The position numbers and the translations under genes were made by a program. Of a stretch of DNA of 64,000 nucleotides, positions 4,937-63,400 are shown piece after piece (positions within the stretch are counted from its first letter, which is position 1; each line of letters begins with the position of its first letter). The stretch covers positions 90,272,001 through 90,336,000 of the forward strand of contig OZ024747.1 in assembly GCA_964016885.1 (NCBI GenBank), given 5' to 3'. The DNA is from Eledone cirrhosa (Eukaryota). The notes beneath the pieces are model-generated. The model was not told the DNA's origin, ran no database searches, and worked only from the letters and a program-made list of their open reading frames with translations.

Positions 4937-4980
<44 letters not shown>
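4808..4980 (+). mobile_element. R4/Dong-like LINE 3' end with (TAA)n tail
   Basis: KACLLGTARTLRYVLNI*, short UTR, (AAT)n on both sides. Confidence 0.7.
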
Positions 4981-4983
<3 letters not shown>

Positions 4984-5059
4984 TTAAAGACTAAAATCCA
5001 AAGAGGGCTCGATAAGGATAAACATATATCAAATATATAAGAACCGTACAGCAACCGTT

Positions 5060-5110
5060 AGTTTCAGAAGATCCCGTTAAGGGTGAAAGCAGCGATTCTT
5101 TGCTTAAACT
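5060..5110 (+). ncRNA. Hammerhead-like motif, family R3
   Basis: Identical core to 62015-62065. Confidence 0.68.
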
Positions 5111-5125
5111 TTAATCTGTTATTTT

Positions 5126-5169
<44 letters not shown>

Positions 5170-5254: not shown

Positions 5255-5290
5255 TCTCAACGTTTCGGACACTAGTCCTTCATCAGAAGA
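5255..5290 (-). ncRNA. Minimal (Penelope-type) hammerhead ribozyme
   Basis: Minus strand TCTT-CTGATGA-A-GGAC(TAGT)GTCC-GAAA-CG-TT-GAGA. Decayed mirror copy at 5319-5354 (GAAA>AAAA). Confidence 0.75.
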
Positions 5291-13647: not shown

Positions 13648-13651
<4 letters not shown>

Positions 13652-14022
13652 TTAGCTTTAAAATTTGCTTCAAGATAGCTGTATACATATATGTATGTGA
13701 ATTTTGTATATCTAAAGATATACAATACGTTTAATAAATAAACATTTTGAAAGCCAAGCTATGAATATTGAAAGGCTGACTGCCAGCGCTATCTAGCGGA
13801 TTCCAGCAGAAGCAGTGAGGGATAACTGCCTGTATGTATTTCAAGCTGATGGCGCCATCAGGACAATGCTTCCCTGCTAGTTTCTGCTTGAACTTGATAA
13901 TAAGTGAGAATATATAGTATTTTCGCCTGTGTAGGTGGGCTGATTAGCCTCATTTGCACAAGAAGCTGTAGCAGCTGGCTCAAATTAAAAGTAAAATTAA
14001 AATTAAGCTTCTTCAACATAGC

Positions 14023-14088
<66 letters not shown>

Positions 14089-14226
14089 AATTTCGTATAT
14101 TCAAAGATATACAGTATGTTTAATAAATAAACATTTTGAAAGCCCTGCTATGAATATTGAAAGGCTGGTGACCAGCACCATTTAGCCAATTCCATCAGAA
14201 GCAACAAGGGATAACTGCCTATTCGT
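13648..14226 (-). repeat. Tandem about 390-bp monomer (about 1.5 copies) in (TA)n, probably a decayed retrozyme-like element
   Basis: 13706-13830 is repeated at 14095-14220. Shares AATAAACATTTTGAA with R2 and AGCCT.ATTTGCA with R1. Confidence 0.55.
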
Positions 14227-20125: not shown

Positions 20126-20161
<36 letters not shown>

Positions 20162-20359
20162 TATATATATGTATACGTACATACATATATGTATACAGAC
20201 ATACAGTAGTATGTATATATATATACATACATGCACACATATATATATGTACGCATAGGTTTACCAAACATTTATTATAATGTTCGGATTGTTTGTAAAA
20301 AAACAGCCCGAATTAATCCGTACAGTGTTCAGCAACCATCGTTGCTGTTTTGTTCAACA

Positions 20360-20428
20360 CTGACACAGGAACGATGTACTAGTTTCAAGCTTTTTAGCTA
20401 TCGTCAGCATCGTATACCTTCCTGTCAG
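20360..20428 (-). ncRNA. Type I hammerhead ribozyme, family R1 (inverted partner)
   Basis: Minus strand ACGATG-CTGACGA-TAGCT(AAAA)AGCTT-GAAA-CTAG-TA-CATCGT. Confidence 0.87.
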
Positions 20429-20733
20429 CTGATTGAATGTTCGAAAGTATATACTTTCCTTATGCATATTAACAGGTGAGCAGCCTAATTTGCATATCGA
20501 GTGAGTTAGTTGGCCGGGCGTACCGAAAACGATAAATGGAAAAAAATAAAACGAAATTTCATACTTATATTTACGTATCAGCCATACTAAGAGTGAGAAA
20601 TGAAATTTTGTTTCATTTTTTTCCATTTATCGTTTTCGGTACGCCCAACCGACTAACTCACTTGATATGCAAATTAGGCTGCTCAGCCGTTAATATGCAT
20701 AAGGAAAGTATATACTTTCAAATGTTCAATCAT

Positions 20734-20802
20734 CTGACAGGAAGGTATACGATGCTGACGATAGCTAATAAGCTTGAAACTAGTACATCGTTCCTGTGTC
20801 AG
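20734..20802 (+). ncRNA. Type I hammerhead ribozyme, family R1
   Basis: ACGATG-CTGACGA-T.AGCT(AATA)AGCT.T-GAAA-CTAG-TA^-CATCGT. 6-bp stem I extended by CTGACAGGAA/TTCCTGTGTCAG across a GGTAT bulge. GUA cleavage triplet. Confidence 0.88.
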
Positions 20803-21140
20803 TGTTGAACAAAACAGCAACGATGGTAGCTGAACACTGTACGGATTAATTCGGGCTGTTTGTTTACAAACAAACCGAACATTATAATAAATGTTCGGTA
20901 AACCCATGCGTACATATATATATGTGTGCATGTATGTATATATATACATGCTACCGTACGTCTGTATACATATATGTATGTACGTGTACATACTTATATT
21001 TAAGTATCAGCCGTACTAAGAGTGAGAAATGAAATTTCGTTTCATTTTTTTTTCATATATACATATAGATATATATGTATATATGTATGTATACATATAT
21101 ATATATGTATATATGTATATATACACATATATATATACAT

Positions 21141-26443: not shown

Positions 26444-26783
26444 GGAGGCATATGGCTTAGTGGTTAAAGCATTGGGCTTGCAATCGAAAGGTTGTGAGTT
26501 CAATTCTCAGACCTGGTGATGTGTTGTTTCCTTGAGCAAGACACTTTATTTCACATTGCTCCAGTTTACTCAGCTGTAGAAATGAGATGATAGGGACTGG
26601 GGTCCATATCATTCCACTGCAAAGTGGTCGTGGAGGTGCCACGGCAAAAAAGCACCCAGCCCACACTGTAAATGAGGTTGGTGTTAGGAAGGGCATCCAG
26701 CTGTAGAAATCAAGTCAGAATCAGTTCCCGTCCCACCCTTGCAAGCAGAGAAAAGCGGACGTAAAACGAAATGAAATGAATGA
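26444..26783 (+). mobile_element. tRNA/CORE-type SINE family B with RTE-derived 3' tail
   Basis: A box TGGCTTAGTGG, B box GAGTTCAATTC, CORE-like CCTTGAGCAAGACACTTTA, tail GGTTGGTGTTAGGAAGGGCATCCAGCTGTAGAAA...GCGGACGTAAAA shared with the RTE UTR. Confidence 0.85.
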
Positions 26784-34011: not shown

Positions 34012-34068
<57 letters not shown>

Positions 34069-34072
<4 letters not shown>

Positions 34073-34367
34073 TGTGAGTTCAATTCTCAGACCGGGTGAT
34101 GTGTTGTTTCCTTGAGCAAGACACTTTATTTCACATTGCTCCAGTTTACTCAGCTGTAGAAATGAGATGATAGAGACTGGGGTCCCTATCATTCCACTGT
34201 AAAGTGGTCGTGGAGGTGCCACGGGAAAAAAGCACCCAGCACTCACTGTAAATGAGGTTGGTGTTAGGAAGGGCATCCAGCTGTAGAAATCAAGCCAGAA
34301 TCAGTTCCCGTCACACCCTTGCAAGCAGGGAAAAGCGGACGTAAAATGATGATGATGATGATGATGA
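34069..34367 (+). mobile_element. SINE family B (5'-truncated) in (TA)n
   Basis: Near-identical to 26489-26783, with (GAT)n tail. Confidence 0.85.
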
Positions 34368-34380
34368 TATATATATATAT

Positions 34381-37687
<3,307 letters not shown>

Positions 37688-40600
37688 ACAACCCATCATC
37701 CCTCCCTCCCGCCCCCACGCACCACCATTATTACGTGGACCAATCATAAGTCAGAGGCCCATACTATCGCTTAACTGGTTGCTTTTCGATATGATGGATG
37801 GACTACGGAATTCTGGAGAGTTGAAGAGAGAAAAATGTGGACGCTCAGCGACAATGCCAAAGATAAAGCCAAATTCACCTCGTGGACGAGAATGCAAGCA
37901 CTCCTCCTTGTTTCGGCCCAGGATGGCTAACATAACCCCATCCCCCCCCGCGCCCCACTGCTCCCACCCTCCAAAAGCAATCCAAAACTTCAGAGTTGGT
38001 ACCACGAATGTAGGCACCTTAAAGGGTCGCTCTAACGAGGTTGTAGAAATGCTTGAACGTAAGGAGGTCGATGTTTGTTGTATTCAAGAGACCAGGTGGA
38101 GGGGAGGGTCGGCTAGATTCATCGTGGGTAAAGAGCGATGCTATAAGCTTTTCTGGGTGGGAAATGACAATGGGTTGGGTGGGGTAGGAATCATGGTAGC
38201 AGAAAAGTGGGCAGATAAGATAATAGACGTAAATAGAGTGAACGACAGAATAATTAAAATAAGACTTGTCCTCAATAAAACTACGGTGACAGTAATATCT
38301 GCGTACGCACCCCAATCCGGACTGCCCCGCGCTATAAAAGACAGATTCTACGAGACACTGATGCTCGCTACCTCCCAAATAACCGACAGTGACTATATAG
38401 TTATTGCAGGCGACCTAAATGGTCACGTTGGACAACATTGTGACGGCTATGACGGAATCCATGGAGGCTATGGGTTCGGTACTAGAAATGAGGAAGGCTC
38501 CAGAATCCTGGAATTCTGCGACGCAAATAACTTAACTATCTGTAACACTAACTTCAAAAAACGAGACAATCACTTGATCACCTATAGATCGGGGGAACAC
38601 ACAAGCCAGGTAGATTATATCCTTACCAGAAGACGTGACAGAGTGTCTGTTGTTAACACTAAATCCCACCCCCATGAAGAATTCACCTCCCAACATAGAC
38701 TGATAATTAGCGACCTCATAGTCAGGACGAGACGTACTAGACAGCGGAAGAGGACTATCCTCAGGAGAAAAATATGGAAGCTAAAGGACCCCATAGCCAG
38801 AAATAAATTTCAAAGCAAATTACTTGACGCTTTCGACAGTAAGGAAGAGCAATTAGAGTCGTATAATATAGAGGAACAGTGGGAATTCCTGAGAGCAAAC
38901 CTGCTGACGGCGGCAGACGAAGTCTGTGGCTGGAGCAGGCCTGTAGGTAGGAGGAGAGTAACATGGTGGTGGAACAGTAAGGTGGAGGAGTCAATTAAGG
39001 CCAAAAAGCAGGCTTGGAAAGTATGGCGGGATGGGGGAAGTAGAGAAGACTATCAAGTGGCCAGGAGGGAAGCTAGGAGACAAGTGTACTTCGCAAGAAG
39101 GGAAGCAGAGGAAAGAAAGTTCAAGCATGTTCTACAACGTGAGGACCAAAAACGTGAGGTGTTCAGGATTGCCAGGCAATGTGTCAAGGAAAACCGTGAT
39201 ATTGTCGGGGACAATATCACGGTTTTCCTTAACATCGTTAAGTGTGTACTTAACGATGATGGCATACTTGCCATCACCGACGCTGATAAGAAGGTAGCTT
39301 GGAAGTGTCACTACGAAAGGCTTCTAAATGAGGAGAACAAATGGGAGAAAGACAGTCTCCCCCAGATCGATCCAATAGAGGGACCAGCAGTGTTAGTTGA
39401 AGGTAGTATAATAAGTAAGGCAATCAAAGATATGAAGACGGGTAAGGCGGCTGGGCCTTCGGAAATAGTTGCTGAGATGCTGAAGGCATCTGGTTCGGTG
39501 GGACACACCATGGTCACCCGGATAGTTAACCAAGTCGTACAGAATGGGGTTGTTCCGAAGGAATGGCGTAGCAGCATCATCGTTAACTGCTATAAGGGAA
39601 AAGGAGATGCCCTAGATAGGAGTAACTATAGAGGCATTAAATTAATCGACCAGGTCATGAAGGTCACGGAAAAAGTAATAGCGCAACTAATCAGAGAGAG
39701 AATTGATCTAGATGAAATGCAGTTCGGGTTTGTGTCAGGCAAAAGTACCACAGACGCTCTTTTCATTGTACGACAACTACAGGAGAAGTACCTAGCTAAA
39801 AGTAAACCCCTATACTTAGCTATTGTCGACTTGGAGAAAGCCTTCGACAGAGTCCCCCGTTCCATTATCTGGTGGTCTCTTAGAAAACTAGGTGTTGACG
39901 AATGGCTTGTGAGAGCTATACAAGCCATGTATAAAGAAACAGTCAGTAAGGTTAGAATTAACAACGAATATAGTGAAGAGTTTAGCGTAAAAGTTGGTGT
40001 CCATCAGGGCTCTGTACTTAGCCCCCTACTATTTATTATTGCCCTTCAGGCTATAACAGAGGAGTTCAAGACCGGCTGCCCATGGGAACTCCTATACGCA
40101 GATGATCTAACGCTCATAGCTGAATCAATGACCGAACTAGAGAAGAAATTCCAAACGTGGAAGCACGGCCTAGAATCAAAAGGCCTTAAAATTAACCTGG
40201 CTAAGACTAAAGTTCTAGTTTGTAGGAAAGAAAATAAGGCGGCGGTCCCATCGGGGAAATGGCCATGCTCAGTGTGTAGGAAAGGCGTAGGTAGAAACTC
40301 CATTTTATGTCCCAAATGCAAAGTATGGGTGCATAAAAGATGTAGTGGGATCACAGGTAAGCTAACTAAGAACATAGATTTTACATGTGGCCGGTGCTCT
40401 GGTGCAATAAGTAGCAGCAAGTGCCCACAAAATACTAGCTCTTTCAATTGCGCAGAGGGTTCTATAGAAATAGTGGACAGCTTCCGTTATCTGGGTGACA
40501 AAATCAGCAGTGGGGGAGGGTGCTCTGAAAGTACAGTAGCTAGAGTCAGAACTGGATGGAAAAAGTTCAGAGAGCTTATACCACTATTAGCCGCTAGAGG

Positions 40601-41557
40601 GTTCTCCCTAAAAATGAAAGGCAGGTTATACGATGCCTGCATACGAACAGCAATGCTGCATGGCAGTGAGACCTGGGCATTGTGTGCAGAGGATATACGC
40701 AGACTAGAGAGGAACGAAGCTTGCATGCTCCGCTGGATGTGCAATAGTAATATACGCGAACGGCAAAGCATAAACGAACTAAGGAAAAAATTAGAAATAA
40801 GAGGGATCAGATGTTGTTTACTCGAGAGAAGGCTACGTTGGTACGGTCACGTGATGCGCATGAAAGACGACAGCTGTATAACAAAGTGCAGGGCAATAAA
40901 GATAGACGGTAGCCACGGAGTAGGCAGACCCAGAAAAACATGGGACGAGCTGATAAATTCCGACCTCACACGCTTACACCTCTCCAAGACAATGTCACTG
41001 GACCGAGACCTTTGGCGGTACTCAGTAATAGAGAAGACCCGCCTTACCTAAATACAAAGTAAAAACCTACTACAGTCAGTAGGCACCTCTATCAAAACAC
41101 ACCCCCGTCCCACCACCTCCACCCCACCCACACCGCCCCTTTCAATGTAAAGTTATGTTGGTCCCACAACATCCAGGCCGAAACAAATGAGATCGTGTAG
41201 GTGTCACGACAAAAAACACACAGTCCACGCTGTAAATGTGGCCGTGTAGGCAACACGGTAAAAACCTCCCAGCCCCACACTGTAAATGTGGTTGGTGTTA
41301 GGAAGGGCATCCAGCTGTAGAAAACCCGCCAGACAGTCCACGCTGTAATGTGGCCGTGTAGGCAACACGGTAAAAACCTCCCAGCCCCACACTGTAAATG
41401 TGGTTGGTGTTAGGAAGGGCATCCAACTGTAGAAAACCCGCCAGACAGTCCTATGCGAGCAAGACAACCACTCTTGCCTCAAGTGGGAAAACCCCCGTCC
41501 AAACCCATGCAAGCGTGGAACACGGACGCTAAACCTGATGATGATGATGATGATGAT
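37688..41557 (+). mobile_element. Near-full-length RTE LINE (copy 1) with 3' UTR and (GAT)n tail abutting (TA)n
   Basis: ORF above, about 500 bp 3' UTR ending GGACGCTAAACC(TGA)n. The 5' end is fused to a tandem array. No TSD visible. Confidence 0.92.
37791..41051 (+). CDS. RTE-clade LINE ORF: AP endonuclease + reverse transcriptase with internal PHD-type zinc finger
   Basis: Uninterrupted 1090-aa ORF (first ATG 37791). APE motifs TTNVGTL, CIQETRW, ISAYAPQ, AGDLNGH, SQVDYIL, SQHRLII. RT motifs KAAGPSEI, NYRGIKL, QFGF, DLEKAFDRV, GVHQGSVLSPLLF, LYADDL, FRYLG. RTE-type C-terminus RRLRWYGHVMR...GRPRKTW. Confidence 0.96.
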   Translation: MMDGLRNSGELKREKCGRSATMPKIKPNSPRGRECKHSSLFRPRMANITPSPPAPHCSHPPKAIQNFRVGTTNVGTLKGRSNEVVEMLERKEVDVCCIQETRWRGGSARFIVGKERCYKLFWVGNDNGLGGVGIMVAEKWADKIIDVNRVNDRIIKIRLVLNKTTVTVISAYAPQSGLPRAIKDRFYETLMLATSQITDSDYIVIAGDLNGHVGQHCDGYDGIHGGYGFGTRNEEGSRILEFCDANNLTICNTNFKKRDNHLITYRSGEHTSQVDYILTRRRDRVSVVNTKSHPHEEFTSQHRLIISDLIVRTRRTRQRKRTILRRKIWKLKDPIARNKFQSKLLDAFDSKEEQLESYNIEEQWEFLRANLLTAADEVCGWSRPVGRRRVTWWWNSKVEESIKAKKQAWKVWRDGGSREDYQVARREARRQVYFARREAEERKFKHVLQREDQKREVFRIARQCVKENRDIVGDNITVFLNIVKCVLNDDGILAITDADKKVAWKCHYERLLNEENKWEKDSLPQIDPIEGPAVLVEGSIISKAIKDMKTGKAAGPSEIVAEMLKASGSVGHTMVTRIVNQVVQNGVVPKEWRSSIIVNCYKGKGDALDRSNYRGIKLIDQVMKVTEKVIAQLIRERIDLDEMQFGFVSGKSTTDALFIVRQLQEKYLAKSKPLYLAIVDLEKAFDRVPRSIIWWSLRKLGVDEWLVRAIQAMYKETVSKVRINNEYSEEFSVKVGVHQGSVLSPLLFIIALQAITEEFKTGCPWELLYADDLTLIAESMTELEKKFQTWKHGLESKGLKINLAKTKVLVCRKENKAAVPSGKWPCSVCRKGVGRNSILCPKCKVWVHKRCSGITGKLTKNIDFTCGRCSGAISSSKCPQNTSSFNCAEGSIEIVDSFRYLGDKISSGGGCSESTVARVRTGWKKFRELIPLLAARGFSLKMKGRLYDACIRTAMLHGSETWALCAEDIRRLERNEACMLRWMCNSNIRERQSINELRKKLEIRGIRCCLLERRLRWYGHVMRMKDDSCITKCRAIKIDGSHGVGRPRKTWDELINSDLTRLHLSKTMSLDRDLWRYSVIEKTRLT

Positions 41558-41600
41558 TTATATATATATATATATGTATATATATGTATATATATATATA

Positions 41601-41694
<94 letters not shown>

Positions 41695-41755
41695 AGTATG
41701 TATGTATACGTACATACATATATGTATACAGACGTACAGTAGCATGCATATATAT

Positions 41756-44597
41756 ATCATCATCATCATCATCATCAACGTTTAACGTCCGTGTTCCACG
41801 CTTGCATGGGTTTGGACGGGGGTAGTCCCACTTGAGGCAAGAGTGATTGTCTTGCTCGCATAGGACTGTCTGGCAGGTTTTCTACAGTTGGATGCCCTTC
41901 CTAACACCAACCACATTTACAGTGTGGGTCTGGGAGGTTTTTACCGTGTTGCCTACACGGCCACATTACAGCGTGGACTGTGTGTTTTTTTGTCGTGACA
42001 CCTACACGATCTCATTTGTTTCGGCCCGGATGGCGCGGCACCAACATAACTTTACATAGGACGGGGTGGTGTGGATGGGGTGGGGGTGGTGGTGGTGGGA
42101 CGGGGTGTATTTTGTTAGAGATGCCTACTGGCAAGGCGGGTCTTCTCTGTTACTGAGTACCGCCAAAGGTCTCGGTCCAGTGACATTGTCTTGGAGAGGT
42201 GTAAGTGTGTGAGGTCGGAGTTTATCAGCTCGTCCCAGGTTTTTCTAGGTCTGCCTATTCCGTGGCTACCGTCTATCTTTATTGCCCTGCACTTTGTTAT
42301 ACAGCTATCGACTTTCATGCGCATCACGTGTCCATACCAACGTAGCCTTCTCTCGAGTAAACAACATCTGATCCCTCTTATCTCTAATTTTTTCCTTAGT
42401 TCGTTTATGCTTTGCCGTTCACGTATATTACTGTTACACATCCAGCGGAGCATGCAAGCTTCGTTCCTCTCTAGTCTGCGTATATCCTCTGCACACAATG
42501 CCCAGGTCTCACTGCCATGCAACATTGCTGTTCGTATGCAGGCATCGTACAACCTGCCTTTCATTTTTAGGGAGAACCCTTTAGCAGCTAATAGTGGTAT
42601 AAGCTCTCTGAACTTTTTCCAACCAGTTCTGACTCTAGCTACAGTACTTTCAGAGCACCCTCCCCCACTGCTGATTTTATCGCCCAGGTAACGGAAGCTG
42701 TCCACTATTTCTATAGAACCCTCTGCGCAATTGAAAGAGCTAGTATTGTGTGGGCACTTGCTGCTACTTATTGCACCAGAACACCGGCCACATGTAAAAT
42801 CTATGTTCTTAGTTAGCTTACCTGTGATCCCACTACATCTTTTATGCACCCATACTTTGCATTTAGGACACAAAATGGAGTTTCTACCTACGCCTTTCCT
42901 ACACACCGAGCACGACCATTTCCCAGAAGGGACCGCCGCCTTGTTTTCTTTCCTACAAACTAGAACTTTGGTCTTAGCCAGGTTAATTTTAAGTCCTTTT
43001 GACTCTAGGCCGTGCTTCCATGTTTGGAATTTCTTCTCTAGCTCGGCCATTGATTCCGCTATGAGTGTCAGGTCGTCTGCGTATAGGAGTTCCCATGGGC
43101 AGCCTGTCTTGAACTCCTCTGTTATAGCCTGAAGGGCAATAATAAATAGTAGGGGGCTGAGAACAGAGCCCTGATGGACGCCAACTTTTACGCTAAACTC
43201 TTCACTATATTCGTTGTTAATTCTAACCTTGCTGACTGTTTCTTTATACATGGCTTGTATAGCCCTCACAAGCCATTCGTCAACGCCTAGTTTTCTAAGA
43301 GCCCACCAGATAATGGAGCGGGGGACTCTGTCGAAGGCTTTCTCCAAGTCGACAAAAGCTAAGTAGAGGGGTTTACCTTTAGCTAGGTACTTCTCCTGTA
43401 GTTGTCGTACTATGAAAAGAGCGTCTGTGGTACTTTTGCCTGACACAAACCCGAACTGCATTTCATCTAGGTCAATTCTCTCTCTGATTAGTTGCGCTAT
43501 TACTTTTTCTGTGACCTTCATGACCTGGTCGATTAATTTAATGCCTCTATAGTTACTCCTATCTAGGGCGTCTCCTTTACCCTTATAACAGTTAACGATG
43601 ATGCTGCTATGCCAGTCCTTCGGAACAACCCCATTCTGTACGACTTGGTTAACTATGCGGGTGACCATGGTGTGTCCCACCGTGCCAGATGCCTTCAGCA
43701 TCTCAGCAACTATTTCCGAAGGCCCAGCCGCCTTACCTGTCTTCATATCCTTGATTGCCTTACTTATTATACTCCCCTCGACTAACACTGCTGGTCCCTC
43801 TATTGGGTCGACATGGGGGAGACTGTCTTTCTCCCATTTATTCTCCTCATTTAGTAGCCTTTCATAGTGACACTTCCAAGCTGCCTTCTTATCAGTGTCG
43901 GTGATGGCAAGTATGCCATCATCGTTAAGTACACACTTCTCCCCGACAATATCACGGTTTTCCTTGACGCATTGCCTAGCAATCCTGAACACCTCACGTT
44001 TTTGGTCATCGCGTTGTAGGACATGCTTGAACTTTCTTTCCTCAGCTTCCCTTCTTGCTAAGTACACTTCTCTCCTAGCTTCCCTCCTGGCCACTTGATA
44101 GTCTACTCTACTTCCCCCATCCCGCCATACTTTCCAAGCCTGCTTTTTGGCCTTAATTGACTCCTCCACCTTACTGTTCCACCACCATGTTACTCTCCTC
44201 CTGCCTACAGGCCTGCTCCAGCCACAGACTTCGTCTGTGGCCAACAGCAGGTTTGCTTTCAGAAATTCCCACTGTCCCTCTATATTGTCCGACTCTAAGT
44301 GTTCTTCCTTACTGTCGAAAGCATCAAGTAATATGTTTTGAAATTTATTTTTGGCTGTGGGGTCCTTTAGCTTCCATATTTTTCTCCTGAGGATAGTCCT
44401 CTTCTGCTGTCGAGTACGTCTCGACCTGACTATGAGGTCGCTAATTATCAGTCTATGTTGGGAGGTGCATTCTTCATGGGGGAGGGATTTAGTGTTTACA
44501 ACAGACACTCTGTCACGTCTTCTGGTAAGGATATAATCTACCTGGCTTGTGTGTTCCCCGGATCTATAGGTGATCAGGTGATTGTCACGTTTTTTTT

Positions 44598-44603
<6 letters not shown>
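41756..44603 (-). mobile_element. RTE LINE copy 2, 5'-truncated, inserted in (TA)n
   Basis: (ATC)n tail at 41756, 3' UTR homologous to copy 1, (TA)n on both sides. Confidence 0.93.
42115..44590 (-). CDS. 5'-truncated RTE LINE ORF (end of APE, RT, PHD finger)
   Basis: 797-aa ORF nearly identical to copy 1. The frame extends upstream to RDNHLITYRSGEHTSQVDYIL. Truncated at the element's own A-tract (poly-T 44590-44603). Confidence 0.94.
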
Positions 44604-44636
<33 letters not shown>

Positions 44637-44640
<4 letters not shown>

Positions 44641-45070
44641 CAGGTACACATACATATATGCACGCATCAGTTTAGCGGACGCTTATTATAACGCCGCTTT
44701 GTTCGTTTGTCAACAAACTGAACAGCCTGAATTTATGCCATACGGTGTTAAGGCAACCACGTCACCTTTTTGTTCAACACTGACACAGGAACGATGTACT
44801 AGTTTCAAGCTTGTTAGCTATCATCAGCACCGTTTACCCATCTGCCAGATAGTTGAACGTTCGAAAGTATATACTTTCCTTATGAAAATTAACGGCTGAG
44901 CAGCCTAATTTGCATATTGAGTGAGTTAAATCGGTCAGGCATACCGAAAACGATAAGTTGAAAAAAAAATGAAAACGAAATTTCATTTCTCACTCTTAGT
45001 ATGGCACTTACTTAAATGTAAGTATGTATGTATACGTACATACATATATGTATACAGACGTACAGTAGCA

Positions 45071-45114
<44 letters not shown>

Positions 45115-45473
45115 CAGGTACACATACATATATGCACGCATCAGTTTAGCGGACGCTTATTATAACGCCGCTTTGTTCATTTGTCAACAAAAAAAAAAAA
45201 AAAAAAAAAAGGTGACGTGGTTGCCTTAACACCGTATGGCATAAATTCAGGCTGTTCAGTTTGTTGACAAACGAACAAAGCGGCGTTATAATAAGCGTCC
45301 GCTAAACTGATGCGTGCATATATGTATGTGTACCTGTATGTATATATATATATATATGCATGCTACTGTACGTCTGTATACATATATGTATGTACGTATA
45401 CATACATACTTACATTTAAGTAAGTGCCATACTAAGAGTGAGAAATGAAATTTCGTTTTCATTTTTTTTTCAA

Positions 45474-45476
<3 letters not shown>
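44637..45476. mobile_element. Retrozyme-like element R1, locus 2: tandem (474-bp period) + inverted copy
   Basis: CATACAGGTACAC at 44637 and 45111; 45211-45476 is inverted. A further piece lies at 41691-41755 on the other side of LINE copy 2. Confidence 0.8.
44791..44833 (-). ncRNA. Type I hammerhead ribozyme, family R1 (second locus)
   Basis: Minus strand ACGGTG-CTGATGA-TAGCT(AACA)AGCTT-GAAA-CTAG-TA-CATCGT. Changes are confined to N7, loop 2 and a G.U wobble. Confidence 0.86.
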
Positions 45477-45548
<72 letters not shown>

Positions 45549-45551
<3 letters not shown>

Positions 45552-45822
45552 CACACAGCTTAGTGGTTAGAGCATTAGCCTTGCAATCGAAAGGTTGTGA
45601 GTTCAATTCTCAGACCAGTTTACTCAGCTGTAGAAATGAGATGATAGGGACTGGGGTCCATATCATTCCACTGCAAAGTGGTTGTGGTGGTGCCACGGCA
45701 AAAAAGCACCCACCACTCACTGTAAATGAGGTTGGTGTTAGGAAGGGCATCCAGCTGTAGAAATCAAGCCAGAATCAGTTCCTGTCCAAGCAGGGAAAAG
45801 CGGACGTAAAATGAAATGATGA

Positions 45823-45868: not shown

Positions 45869-46042
45869 TAAATCATGTCCCTAGAATTATTAGATAAAAT
45901 ATATACAATTTCCTCTCCCATATTATTACTATATATATATATATATATATAGTAATAATAATAAAGATGAAGGTTAAAATCCGAAGAGGGCTCGATAAGG
46001 ATGATATATATATATAAATATATAAAAACCATAGAGCAAATA

Positions 46043-46090
46043 TTCAGAAGATCCCTTTAAGGTTGAAAGCAGCGATTCTTTGCTTAAACT
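46043..46090 (+). ncRNA. Decayed hammerhead-like motif, family R3
   Basis: CAGAAGA-TCCCTTTAAGGTT-GAAA-GCAGCGATTCTTTGC-TT-AAACT. Stem I 5' arm truncated. Confidence 0.5.
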
Positions 46091-48088
46091 TTAATCTGTT
46101 ATTTTAATTTATATATATATATAGAGAGAGAGAGAGGGAGAGAGAGTTTACAGTGCTGAGACCGGGTAGACCACTAATCATAGGAGTACTCAATGCATAG
46201 GAGATACAGAGTAGGTATATGAGATGTAAAATCCTGTGATTTTACATCTCTCTTTCTCTCTCTCTCCTTCTTTCTCTCTCTGTCCCTCTCTCTTTCTCTC
46301 TCACTCTATAAATATATATATTGATTGATTGGAACCACTGTCCTCATAGACAGGCTGGGGATTGCATCTCACCTGGATTCACTCCAGCACTCTACAGAGT
46401 CCACCAGGTGTATTTTAATATGACAGAAGCAGTAGGGAGATTGTAATGTCTCTGTCACAACTGAAGAGTCAAAGATTGTTGTAGATATAATCCATCCTTG
46501 ATATTCTTATCAATGTCAGATTAAAAAGTGATGATCTGGTTAGTTGAAAGGACCCGGTTCCAGTGCAATTTCTTTGAAAATCTTTATAGTGAAGAACCAT
46601 GCAAGATGCTGCCACCACCACCACCACCATCATCAGCAACTTCATCATCATCACCATCATTATCATCACCGTTTAACGTCCATTTTCCATGTTAGCATGG
46701 GTTAGACAGATTGTCCCATTAGAGACAAGTTGGGTCAGGTGACTGTATCTTGCTCATATAAAACTGTTTCTGGCTAAGTTTCTATGCCTGGATGCCCTAT
46801 GGCAGGATGTCCTAATGCCAACCACATTTACAGAGAAATTAGTTAAACCAAGCTCATCACATCTATTAAAATAATAAAATTAACAATACTAAAAATTTAA
46901 TGTTAACATTTTTCATCATTGTATGCTACTGTAAAATACTAACATTAAAAATTTGAAGATCCATCCAACCTATGCTTGTATAAAAGCATCTACTTGATAT
47001 GGAAGACGAAATAAGGAAATGGCAAACCAAATGTGATGTGACAACTGAGTAAATTTATCTTTTATATCTAAGTAAGAAACTCTAAGGTAAACACAACAAA
47101 GATTGCTAAGCTAGCGGCAGTAACATCTAGAACAATCAATGATATCTGTGAAAGAAAGAATAAAGATGAAACAAAGCAATGTCTGAGAGTTTTAAATGCT
47201 AACAAAATAAAACAAAATTCAGAAGAATAAATTTAAGGTGTTTTCATTTATCCTTACTCTTTTCTCTATCTTTTAGGCTGTTGTTTACAATCTTATTCTA
47301 GTGTATTTTTATTCAACCTATTTTCTATGCATCAGAACAACATAAGTAATAAGGATTGGAAGAAAGCTCTTTGAATTTCTTCTACTCATTACATTCCTTA
47401 TCTATTGTACTTTTGCTGCTTCATCTACCTTTGTTGTTTACTTCACTAAAGAATATTTCCATTACTGACAACAGTCTCTTCATCAAAAGCCAGTATTTCC
47501 CTTGCTAATCTATTTAGGGAACTAAACTGGCTTGTGAATTTCTTTCATATGATATTTGCATTGTCTGACAGCTCGTTGTATATTCAAGTGCATTTTTGAT
47601 GCAGTTGATGCTGAGAATTGAGTACTTACATATATATTCTCCCCTAAACAAAGACACTGCTACTTCATAAGATATTCTAAGGTCATATATCAATCATTTA
47701 TATCTTATTTCTCTTTTATAAGGTTTTGAAATTTTACTTTTCTTTCTTTGAAAATGATAATATTTTGATATAGTTACATTACATAAATATAATGGTTTCT
47801 GGTCTAGGCAGAAGGCCAATAATTTAGCCAGAGGGAAAGTTGATTAAATCGACCCCATAAGGATGATAGGCAAAGCTAATCCCAGCAGGATTTGAACTCA
47901 TAATGTAAAGGGATATAACTATATGCCACAAAGCATGTTGTCCAATGCTGTACCGTTACTGCCAATCCACTGTCCTTTTGTTATATAACAATAATAACCA
48001 CTACACAAAAACATACACATATATCTATAATAATTGTATGGAAAGTCTCAGATTCACTTTTGCTGGTTTATTATATCTTAAACGATAT

Positions 48089-61999: not shown

Positions 62000-62073
62000 C
62001 AGATTGACTTTGTTAGTTTCAGAAGATCCCGTTAAGGGTGAAAGCAGCGATTCTTTGCTTAAACTTTAATCTG
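62000..62073 (+). ncRNA. Hammerhead-like motif with A4 core variant, family R3
   Basis: AGTTT-CAGAAGA-T.CCC(GTTAA)GGG.T-GAAA-GCA(GCGATTCTT)TGC-TT-AAACT. Stem I extended by CAGATTGA/TTAATCTG. Confidence 0.7.
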
Positions 62074-62172
62074 TTATTTTAATAAATATTTGCTCTACGG
62101 TTCTTATATATTTGATATATATTTATCCTTATCGAGCCCTCTTTGGATTTTAGTCTTCAAATTTATTATTAT

Positions 62173-62206
<34 letters not shown>

Positions 62207-62209
<3 letters not shown>

Positions 62210-62619
62210 AAGACAAACATAGAATATTCGAAAATATTCTGTATGTTTATAATAAACATTTTGAAGACCCAATCGCTATAGAATAGAATACGTCATGTAT
62301 TACAATTTCAGATTCTCGACAAAAGTAAGGGAAGTAATCTACGCATTTCATTCTTGTTAGAAATCATCAGGATTACATATCCAATACTTTTATCGAGAAC
62401 GACACAGCTAGAGACTTATAGAATACTTAGCTGTGTACAGGAACTGGTTTGATAGAGCGGTAGCCGGTCCGGCAGAAATTAGAATTTGGATTTAATGCTC
62501 TGAAATAGTGATATATATGTGAAGACAAACATAGAATATTCGAAAATATTCTGTATGTTTATAATAAACATTTTGAAGACCCAATCGCTATAGAATAGAA
62601 TACGTCATGTATTACAATT

Positions 62620-62620
<1 letters not shown>
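62207..62620 (-). mobile_element. Retrozyme-like element R2: about 1.3 monomers of 312 bp in (TA)n
   Basis: 62207-62308 is repeated exactly at 62519-62620. One HHR per monomer. Confidence 0.78.
62313..62399 (-). ncRNA. Type I hammerhead ribozyme, family R2
   Basis: Minus strand GTAATC-CTGATGA-T.TTCT(AACA)AGAA.T-GAAA-TGCG-TA-GATTAC. Stem I extended by TTCTCGATAAAAGTA/TACTTTTGTCGAGAA beyond a TAT bulge. Confidence 0.85.
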
Positions 62621-62677
<57 letters not shown>

Positions 62678-62869
62678 TTGAAAATATCAGAGGCCAAATG
62701 CAGTTGTTTTAAGTTTATTTATATTTCCAAGATATATATTTTACTGATCTCATCAGATGGTAGTATAAAACCCTTTAAAAACTTTCCTTGAAAGTTTTTT
62801 CATTTCATGATACAGGGGATGGCAGAATGAGTTGATGTTGTTTCCATGCCAACCAGCCCCAGTATCTAC

Positions 62870-63400
62870 ATAGATACAGGTTACTGACAAGAATTGTAGC
62901 TGGAGCTATCACCTGTGTTGGCAATAAAAGTTTTCTCTCTGCGAAAGAGAGGCTGGCTATATGTTACCTATGTGTGATGCTTGGTGTTGCATGACAGTGA
63001 GACATGGGCAGGGAATGGAGAGGATATACAAAGGCTGGAGAGGAATGAAGTGAACATGCTTCATGAAGTGAACGAATGTGTAATGCTAATATGTGTGAAC
63101 AACAAAACGTGGATGAGCTGAGAGCAAAGCTGGTTATAAGAAATATAGTGTGCAGGGGAAAAAAACTGCTCTGGTATGGACATGTGATGTATATGGATGA
63201 TGATCATTGAGTGAAGGTGCCAAAATATTTCAGTGCAGCAGGGGGAGACCAAAGAAATTGTGGTAGAAGTTGTGAAAGCTGATCTCAAGTCACTGAATTT
63301 TGCAGATGAGATGACAAAAACTGCAGCAAGTGGAGGGATGCTGTGCTGTACAATTCCTATCCAACACATATAAGGATGGAGATTCTGCTGTTAAATAATG
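62870..63400 (+). mobile_element. Degenerate RTE 3' fragment
   Basis: Decayed matches to ...SETW...RLERNE...WYGHVM... of the intact LINE. Confidence 0.6.

Follow-up and report, generated by a model that had tools for sequence, protein, structure and literature searches.

In the accessible parts of the literature, animal non-LTR retrozymes are characterised as multi-copy repeats of 150-450 bp that have a GC content below 50%, contain no ORF and carry one type I hammerhead per unit, with a self-paired fold and copies longer than a single unit (PMC7229834; bioRxiv 10.64898/2026.07.22.740005). Retrozyme RNAs are described as cleaving as dimers and being closed by RtcB-type ligation (PMC7229834), while the priming of animal retrozymes and the enzyme that copies them are stated to be open questions (PMC7229834; PMC7761336). 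The textbook type I hammerhead of animals has a 6-bp helix I, a 4-bp helix II and a tiny palindromic helix III (PMC4209133). In the pseudo-LTRs of endonuclease-bearing Penelope-like elements the reverse transcriptase (RT) start region lies ~85-140 nt past the hammerhead, and AT-rich or (TA)n targets, partial tandems and inverted copies are reported (PMC4209133; PMC8557442; PMC11167929). A (TA)n bias is known for the Naiad Penelope-like elements, and the telomere-attached Athena/Coprina elements place a hammerhead beside a tract complementary to the target repeat (PMC8557442).

R2 is a repeat at positions 62207-62620 of the window, the whole 64-kb stretch of Eledone cirrhosa DNA analysed here. 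By its testable sequence features it belongs with the animal non-LTR retrozymes, a published class, whose traits given above it shares. It is unlike them in that its single hammerhead falls short of what is called an ‘active’ element in bioRxiv 10.64898/2026.07.22.740005, and it is known here from DNA alone; its (TA)n junction is also recurrent and its 3' module is common to families, whereas the accessible text of PMC7761336 describes animal retrozymes as lacking a conserved motif that would indicate a helper. With the pseudo-LTRs R2 shares the position of its candidate RT start region, and the R2 group shares their targets, partial tandems and inverted copies; R2 differs from them in having no ORF and a canonical hammerhead (full 6-bp helix I with an internal loop) rather than a minimal one. 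As in Athena/Coprina, the hammerhead is accompanied by a target-complementary tract, but this is (AU)n for an internal microsatellite and not a telomeric repeat (PMC8557442). The features of the locus are as follows.

62089..62175, no strand: unrelated neighbouring repeat whose end bears the left TA tract; likely pre-existing target
62176..62206, no strand: left (TA)n tract; last 8 nt match the unit's internal ATATATAT; putative priming side (RNA 3' end)
62207..62308, minus strand: terminal redundancy, 3' copy; holds the 3' module (two predicted hairpins) common with family R3
62207..62518, minus strand: full 312-nt unit, circular permutation; fold z = -4.35
62313..62399, minus strand: long stem extending helix I and enclosing the ribozyme motif (structure prediction)
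62330..62382, minus strand: type I hammerhead motif (descriptor match); predicted cut after A at 62340
62511..62518, minus strand: internal AUAUAUAU tract, equivalent to +134..+141 past the cut site; candidate RT start
62519..62622, minus strand: terminal redundancy, 5' copy; stops 3 nt before the equivalent of the long-stem base, then merges into (TA)n
62622..62674, no strand: right (TA)n tract (microsatellite listing)

Self-comparison of the window yields an exact direct repeat of 110 bp at an offset of 312 (62199-62308 and 62511-62620). Eight of the 110 repeated bases are ATATATAT, which is internal in the right copy and fused with the left (TA)n tract at the left; the 312-bp monomer with exact 102-bp terminal redundancy described in an earlier note on this DNA is borne out, and the redundancy becomes 110 bp if these 8 nt are counted. 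Past the repeat the first mismatch is 62309 C versus 62621 G, followed by 1 further matching base, and at 62309 the sequencing reads described below carry the base found at 62621. With a length of 414/312 = 1.33 units between the (TA)n tracts at 62176-62206 and 62622-62674, the element also agrees with the ~1.3 monomers of that note. Both flanks are (TA)n, and hence any target-site duplication is masked. The neighbouring repeat has two other copies in the window (near 45950-46044 and 4966-5054), each with a (TA)n or (TTA)n end although R2 is absent there; the left TA tract therefore likely predates the insertion. The GC content is 0.30 over 62001-63000, which includes the 312-bp unit; no ORF of at least 120 aa overlaps the locus, and the window, AT-rich and dense in microsatellites and repeats, holds one R2 copy.

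R2 carries a standard type I hammerhead motif, a predicted ribozyme, on the minus strand. Stem I pairs 62376-62371 with 62339-62334 (6 bp), the core boxes are CUGAUGA (62370-62364) and GAAA (62349-62346), and stem II pairs 62362-62359 with 62354-62351 (4 bp) under an AACA loop. After GAAA come UGCG and then the GUA site that the earlier note had recognised, with the cut predicted after 62340, and outside helix I lie a UAU/U internal loop and a 3-bp outer stem. The supposed 4-nt stem III is actually a helix of 1-2 bp with a palindromic loop, written A(UGCG)U. The conjecture that this loop is properly CGCG was correct: the window copy has UGCG, and ~99% of reads restore CGCG (1141/1151 and 1194/1196 in one set of restriction-site-associated (RAD) reads, 885/889 and 941/941 in another). 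The CUGANGA and GAAA boxes with an NUH site are those of a canonical animal type I hammerhead, as is the layout of a 6-bp helix I, a 4-bp helix II and a palindromic-loop helix III of 1-2 bp. The usual G10.1-C11.1 pair is missing; at the stem II base R2 and family R1 both show a U.U mismatch, which was absent from the first description.

Within the window a strict descriptor of this motif picks out R2 and three R1 copies; it matches 0/2000 dinucleotide shuffles of the element, so that the match is not a chance one. No hammerhead family of Rfam reaches its gathering threshold (best HH9, 18.4 bits, E 0.09, threshold 52). The 101-nt hammerhead region folds with z = -6.30 and the closed (circular) unit has a fold energy below all 60 shuffles, while the 141-nt 3' part, taken by itself, is no more stable than its shuffles (z = -0.05). 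The strand cannot be told from folding energy (-75.9 for the opposite-strand circle versus -68.6). The minimum-energy fold mispairs the core (-12.4 versus -1.4 kcal/mol for the hammerhead fold), a point against the reading preferred below.

The palindromic helix III of R2 and R1 is predicted to pair between two molecules, which fits the published dimer model (PMC4209133). Compared by published description, the axolotl HHR_Amex1 has the 1-bp helix III and palindromic tetraloop seen in R2, and HHR_Amex2 has the U.U at the helix II base; both perform better as dimers (PMC7229834), and R2 and R1 combine these two weak features in one motif. A weak helix III together with U.U at the helix II base suggests that cutting would occur mainly in the dimer. 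As a monomer, the U.U hammerhead of the axolotl shows weak cleavage (PMC7229834), and 8/9 predicted retrozyme dimers of Xenopus stayed uncleaved in vitro (bioRxiv 10.64898/2026.07.22.740005), so activity of R2 cannot be assumed.

Is R2 a unit in its own right? It was mapped in four of 23 listed sequencing runs, as contigs in X1 and X4 (organisms A and B, respectively) and as RAD reads in X21 and X22 (both organism A). R2-like material comprises 443 contigs in A, 2397 contigs in B, 8796 reads in X21 and 6588 reads in X22, contig depth sums not being taken as copy number. All 30 unit bins are covered in 4/4 runs, and contig pieces among those listed span the unit junction and the AATT restriction sites; the 312-nt unit is therefore continuous from end to start. 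The R2 family is abundant, multi-copy and circularly continuous in two other organisms. As to tandem arrangement, two hammerheads in one array did not turn up: the window copy has one, the contigs are short, and the reads are restriction-cut and too short to span two. Pile-ups of read ends at 62304, 62480, 62486 and 62619 were rejected as element termini, being the four AATT sites of the element (RAD restriction ends), and loose ends at AATT sites were set aside as likely ligation chimeras. An octamer-like promoter word in R2 was dropped, as it has one mismatch and further changes in the reads.

These data bear on the reading of R2 as the partial-tandem pseudo-LTR of an autonomous Penelope-like element, a truncation by-product rather than a self-propagating 312-nt unit. 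Retrozymes are described as akin to pseudo-LTRs (bioRxiv 10.64898/2026.07.22.740005), and one outside locus, L020, has the hammerhead subtype of R2 (U.U/CGCG) after a GIY-YIG ORF (E 1.8e-07). However, depth is high round the whole 312-nt circle, the share of X1 and X4 contigs (which are short) that continue into dissimilar sequence is 0, and among the loose ends listed no exit into a longer body dominates, all of which makes such an origin unlikely.

The same reads show how the ribozyme region varies. Twelve read variants were checked: 6 fall at paired positions and all keep the pair, 5 affect loop 2, the bulge region or N7, a free position of the core, and 1 lies in an internal mismatch; N7 is the only core position to vary among the listed variants. 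The pair 62386/62326 is U-A in the window copy and C-G in the reads, pairing being kept only by the double change. Some alleles of the window copy are those of organism A and others those of B, so that it represents a variant distinct from either. Differences from both organisms are listed at 8 places of the unit (in ~90% of reads or more), 1 in the duplicated part (at both ends) and 7 in the 210 single-copy bases. The private base in the duplicated part (62296 = 62608) is present in both R2 ends and absent from both read sets. Were the differences to post-date insertion, the chance of identical ends would be 0.0003 (4% decay) or ~0.001 (7/210, by hand). Identical ends with a shared private base, despite 7/210 single-copy differences, point to one template for both ends and a recent insertion.

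The earlier note saw the best internal evidence for the fold in covariation with R1. Across R2 and three R1 copies (4 rows), 8/15 pairs are changed on both sides and 100% of cells are paired, against 0-2 in slid-alignment controls. The covariation is real, but it is a single comparison of two lineages, on which R-scape is probably underpowered, and any two canonical hammerheads would differ as R1 and R2 do. To call stems I and II of the two families ‘unrelated’ is too strong, with 2/4 pairs identical in stem II and 1/6 in stem I. Likewise the layout is common to both, U.U included, but the AACA loop occurs in 1/3 and the TAT bulge in 2/3 R1 copies. The read variants within the family and the unrelated loci described next give better evidence. 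In the window a covariance model built from A1 detects nothing beyond the 4 copies on which it was trained. The R1 3' region is not significantly similar to R2, scores as high being reached by 11 and 435 of 500 shuffles.

A search with a pattern of the U.U subtype yielded 95 metagenome loci and 1 viral locus, with 35 distinct stem II keys, L043 and L012 sharing one key. Helix I is complete in 6 keys, of which 5 show UA at the bulge, 5 an opposing U, 5 at least 3 stem II pairs and all 6 a palindromic loop; among the other 29 keys, 2 have UA at the bulge and 19 a palindromic loop. When the 4 window rows are aligned with 7 outside loci, double changes occur in 13/15 pairs, and in this 11-row alignment the outer stem is 87.9% and stem II 84.1% paired; only these two count as tests, because helix I was the selection criterion. 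Patterns specific to R2 and to its module, run against viral and prokaryotic genome collections (41 and 98 loci), matched only over the seed or the hammerhead core. L020:464-1494 (minus strand) reads as the terminal part of a Penelope-like element: a CxxC linker and a GIY-YIG domain, then the U.U/CGCG hammerhead. The L006 and L043 contigs have terminal direct repeats with periods of 1075 and 987, resembling ~1-kb units in tandem or circular form.

How R2 meets its flanks is seen in several of the data sets. Directly before 62511 stands (TA)n in 275/8796 X21 reads, 231/6588 X22 reads and 7/443 X1 contigs; most reads at 62511 run through (internal form), and among the loose ends listed for organism B there is no (TA)n junction. 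The consensus beyond the junction TA run is mixed (agreement 0.67), and this suggests that several loci contribute junction reads, although in RAD data a single locus can be read repeatedly. Three 5' ends were found, at 62622 (window R2), 62251 (one X1 contig) and near 14226 in helix III (a copy of family R3); all differ and each abuts (TA)n. The RNA 3' side, unlike these varied 5' ends, joins (TA)n at one recurrent place, which is the polarity expected of target-primed reverse transcription. The AUAUAUAU tract varies in organism B, at 62513 in ~18% and at 62517 in ~36% of contig depth.

The spacing of this junction extends to the sister families. R3 (13649-13890 and 14086-14226) aligns with the 3' module of R2 with scores of 59 and 47, the maxima of 500 shuffles being 30 and 29. 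From the predicted cut to the first AU run past +90 the distance is 129-139 nt in 6/6 window copies of R1, R2 and R3. What is new here is this AU tract 129-139 nt past the cleavage site in three window families, and the repeated joining of R2 copies to (TA)n at that place. R3 lies on the minus strand and has a decayed hammerhead (read by eye) with the same spacing as R2; its second copy is truncated inside helix III, between (TA)n tracts. R1 (20158-21002 and 44620-45478) has a period of ~429 bp and inverted duplicates; its ribozyme has an ATGCAAAT word upstream, and its AU tract follows a hairpin whose loop is of the UUAUAAUAA type.

Could the insertion be a DNA-level event, in which a 1.33-unit satellite piece was patched by microhomology into a break at the TA tract with no RNA step? 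There is TA microhomology at both R2 ends (8 nt and 1-3 nt), and TA repeats are known as fragile sites repaired by MMEJ (PMC13645644). Against this stand the fixed 3' junction with its variable 5' ends, a hammerhead-to-junction spacing that is alike in three families, and the conservation of the RNA pairs, and we regard repair of this kind as very improbable.

Our preferred reading, in which we have good though not full confidence, is that Penelope-like enzymes put R2 into a pre-existing TA microsatellite as 1.33 units of a 312-nt hammerhead repeat; this repeat, multi-copy and non-coding, is most likely a non-LTR retrozyme. Tandem source copies would be transcribed on the hammerhead strand, and the predicted ribozyme, cutting mainly as a dimer through the palindromic loop, would free 312-nt monomers that a host ligase could close. 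A GIY-YIG endonuclease would nick (TA)n, and the RT would start internally at the AU tract ~135-140 nt past the cut, behind the two hairpins. It would then run through the cut site and past its own start and halt on its second pass at the base of the long stem (a single case), which is proposed to give the exact terminal redundancy. Because the cut site lies within the copy, a linear cleaved monomer was not the template; a circle and an uncleaved linear multimer fit the data alike. A circular RNA is therefore a plausible implication of R2, the 1.33-unit form fitting an uncleaved linear tandem transcript equally well. Having one hammerhead only, the window copy itself likely cannot release unit-length RNA and would be a dead end.

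The one Penelope-like RT studied in vitro, that of the anole, has uncleaved linear tandem RNA as its main template (PMC11167929). Its element is cut 26 nt, and reverse transcription starts 111-118 nt, into the ORF, so that on RNA still unprocessed synthesis begins internally, ~85-90 nt beyond the hammerhead cut (PMC11167929). The RNA at which this enzyme begins has no homology to the target (PMC11167929), which counts against a need for AU pairing; the candidate start site of R2, by contrast, matches the target repeat. A search of the 64-kb window with the L020 ORF (tblastn) gave no match to an autonomous partner, and no ORF with RT and GIY-YIG domains is attached to the R2 repeat at the locus.

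The only intact RT in the window is that of a LINE, and a LINE rather than a Penelope-like element might mobilise R2, using the AU tract for priming in the manner of a SINE tail. Among possible helpers PMC7229834 lists LINEs, and the one at 37689-44601 is intact, with RT, APE endonuclease and PHD finger; however, self-comparison reveals no similarity of the R2 region to it, and internal initiation, copies longer than a unit and the inverted duplicates of R1 (20158-21002) are traits of Penelope-like elements (PMC8557442; PMC11167929). We give this route hardly any credence. The same LINE takes the form of a 2.8-kb inverted duplication with 93% identity, with ORFs of 1120 and 828 aa.

Other neighbours in the window deserve mention. 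A tRNA-like match at 26446-26515 (Rfam 32.7 bits) directly follows a long (TA)n and has related copies near 34068-34379 and 45560-45620, which suggests the head of a SINE. A repeat at 61682-61787/61984-62089 (inverted pair), 5057-5158 and 46043-46123 has, in the copies viewed, a hammerhead-like core CAGAAGA and not CUGAAGA, with a long helix III, a (TA)n end and an inverted junction to a second repeat; it is possibly a core variant or a dead ribozyme. A loose pattern scan finds the window dense in minimal Penelope-type hammerhead-like cores, at 5286(-), 21347(-), 23059(+), 60085(-) and 61511(+).

Within the reading of R2 as a retrozyme copied by Penelope-like enzymes, a further and more doubtful idea is that retrozymes may carry their own targeting guide, a telomerase-like module of hammerhead, spacer, hairpins and repeat-complementary tract that pairs the RNA with the nicked target and whose tract can be swapped. 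(TAACCC)n is found ~60 nt past the cut in L006, L011, L047 and L088 (a near-duplicate of L047); it is absent past the cut in L043 and L062, and L012 ends before that point. On this idea (AU)n would aim R1-R3 at TA microsatellites and (UAACCC)n, ~60 nt past the cut, would aim L006, L011 and L047, which have the hammerhead subtype of R2, at telomere-type repeats. Against it, the tract may simply be inherited from a former target, and pairing is dispensable for the anole enzyme. Several GTCACGTG words accompany (TAACCC)n in L006:753-900, L011:997-1116, L047:1001-1200 and L088.

We found no prior description of the R2 family or of AU-primed retrozyme insertion in the literature searched, mainly openly accessible papers and, for PMC7229834 and the bioRxiv preprint, the main text. 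The class is already published and R2 by itself adds one family; its value is that of a test case. Together, the fixed junction, the conserved spacing and the 3' module that R2 has in common with R3 indicate a definite start site, which can be mapped across copies. If the idea of a targeting guide were true, the exact 1.33-turn copy would be the footprint of rolling-circle reverse transcription of a circular RNA.
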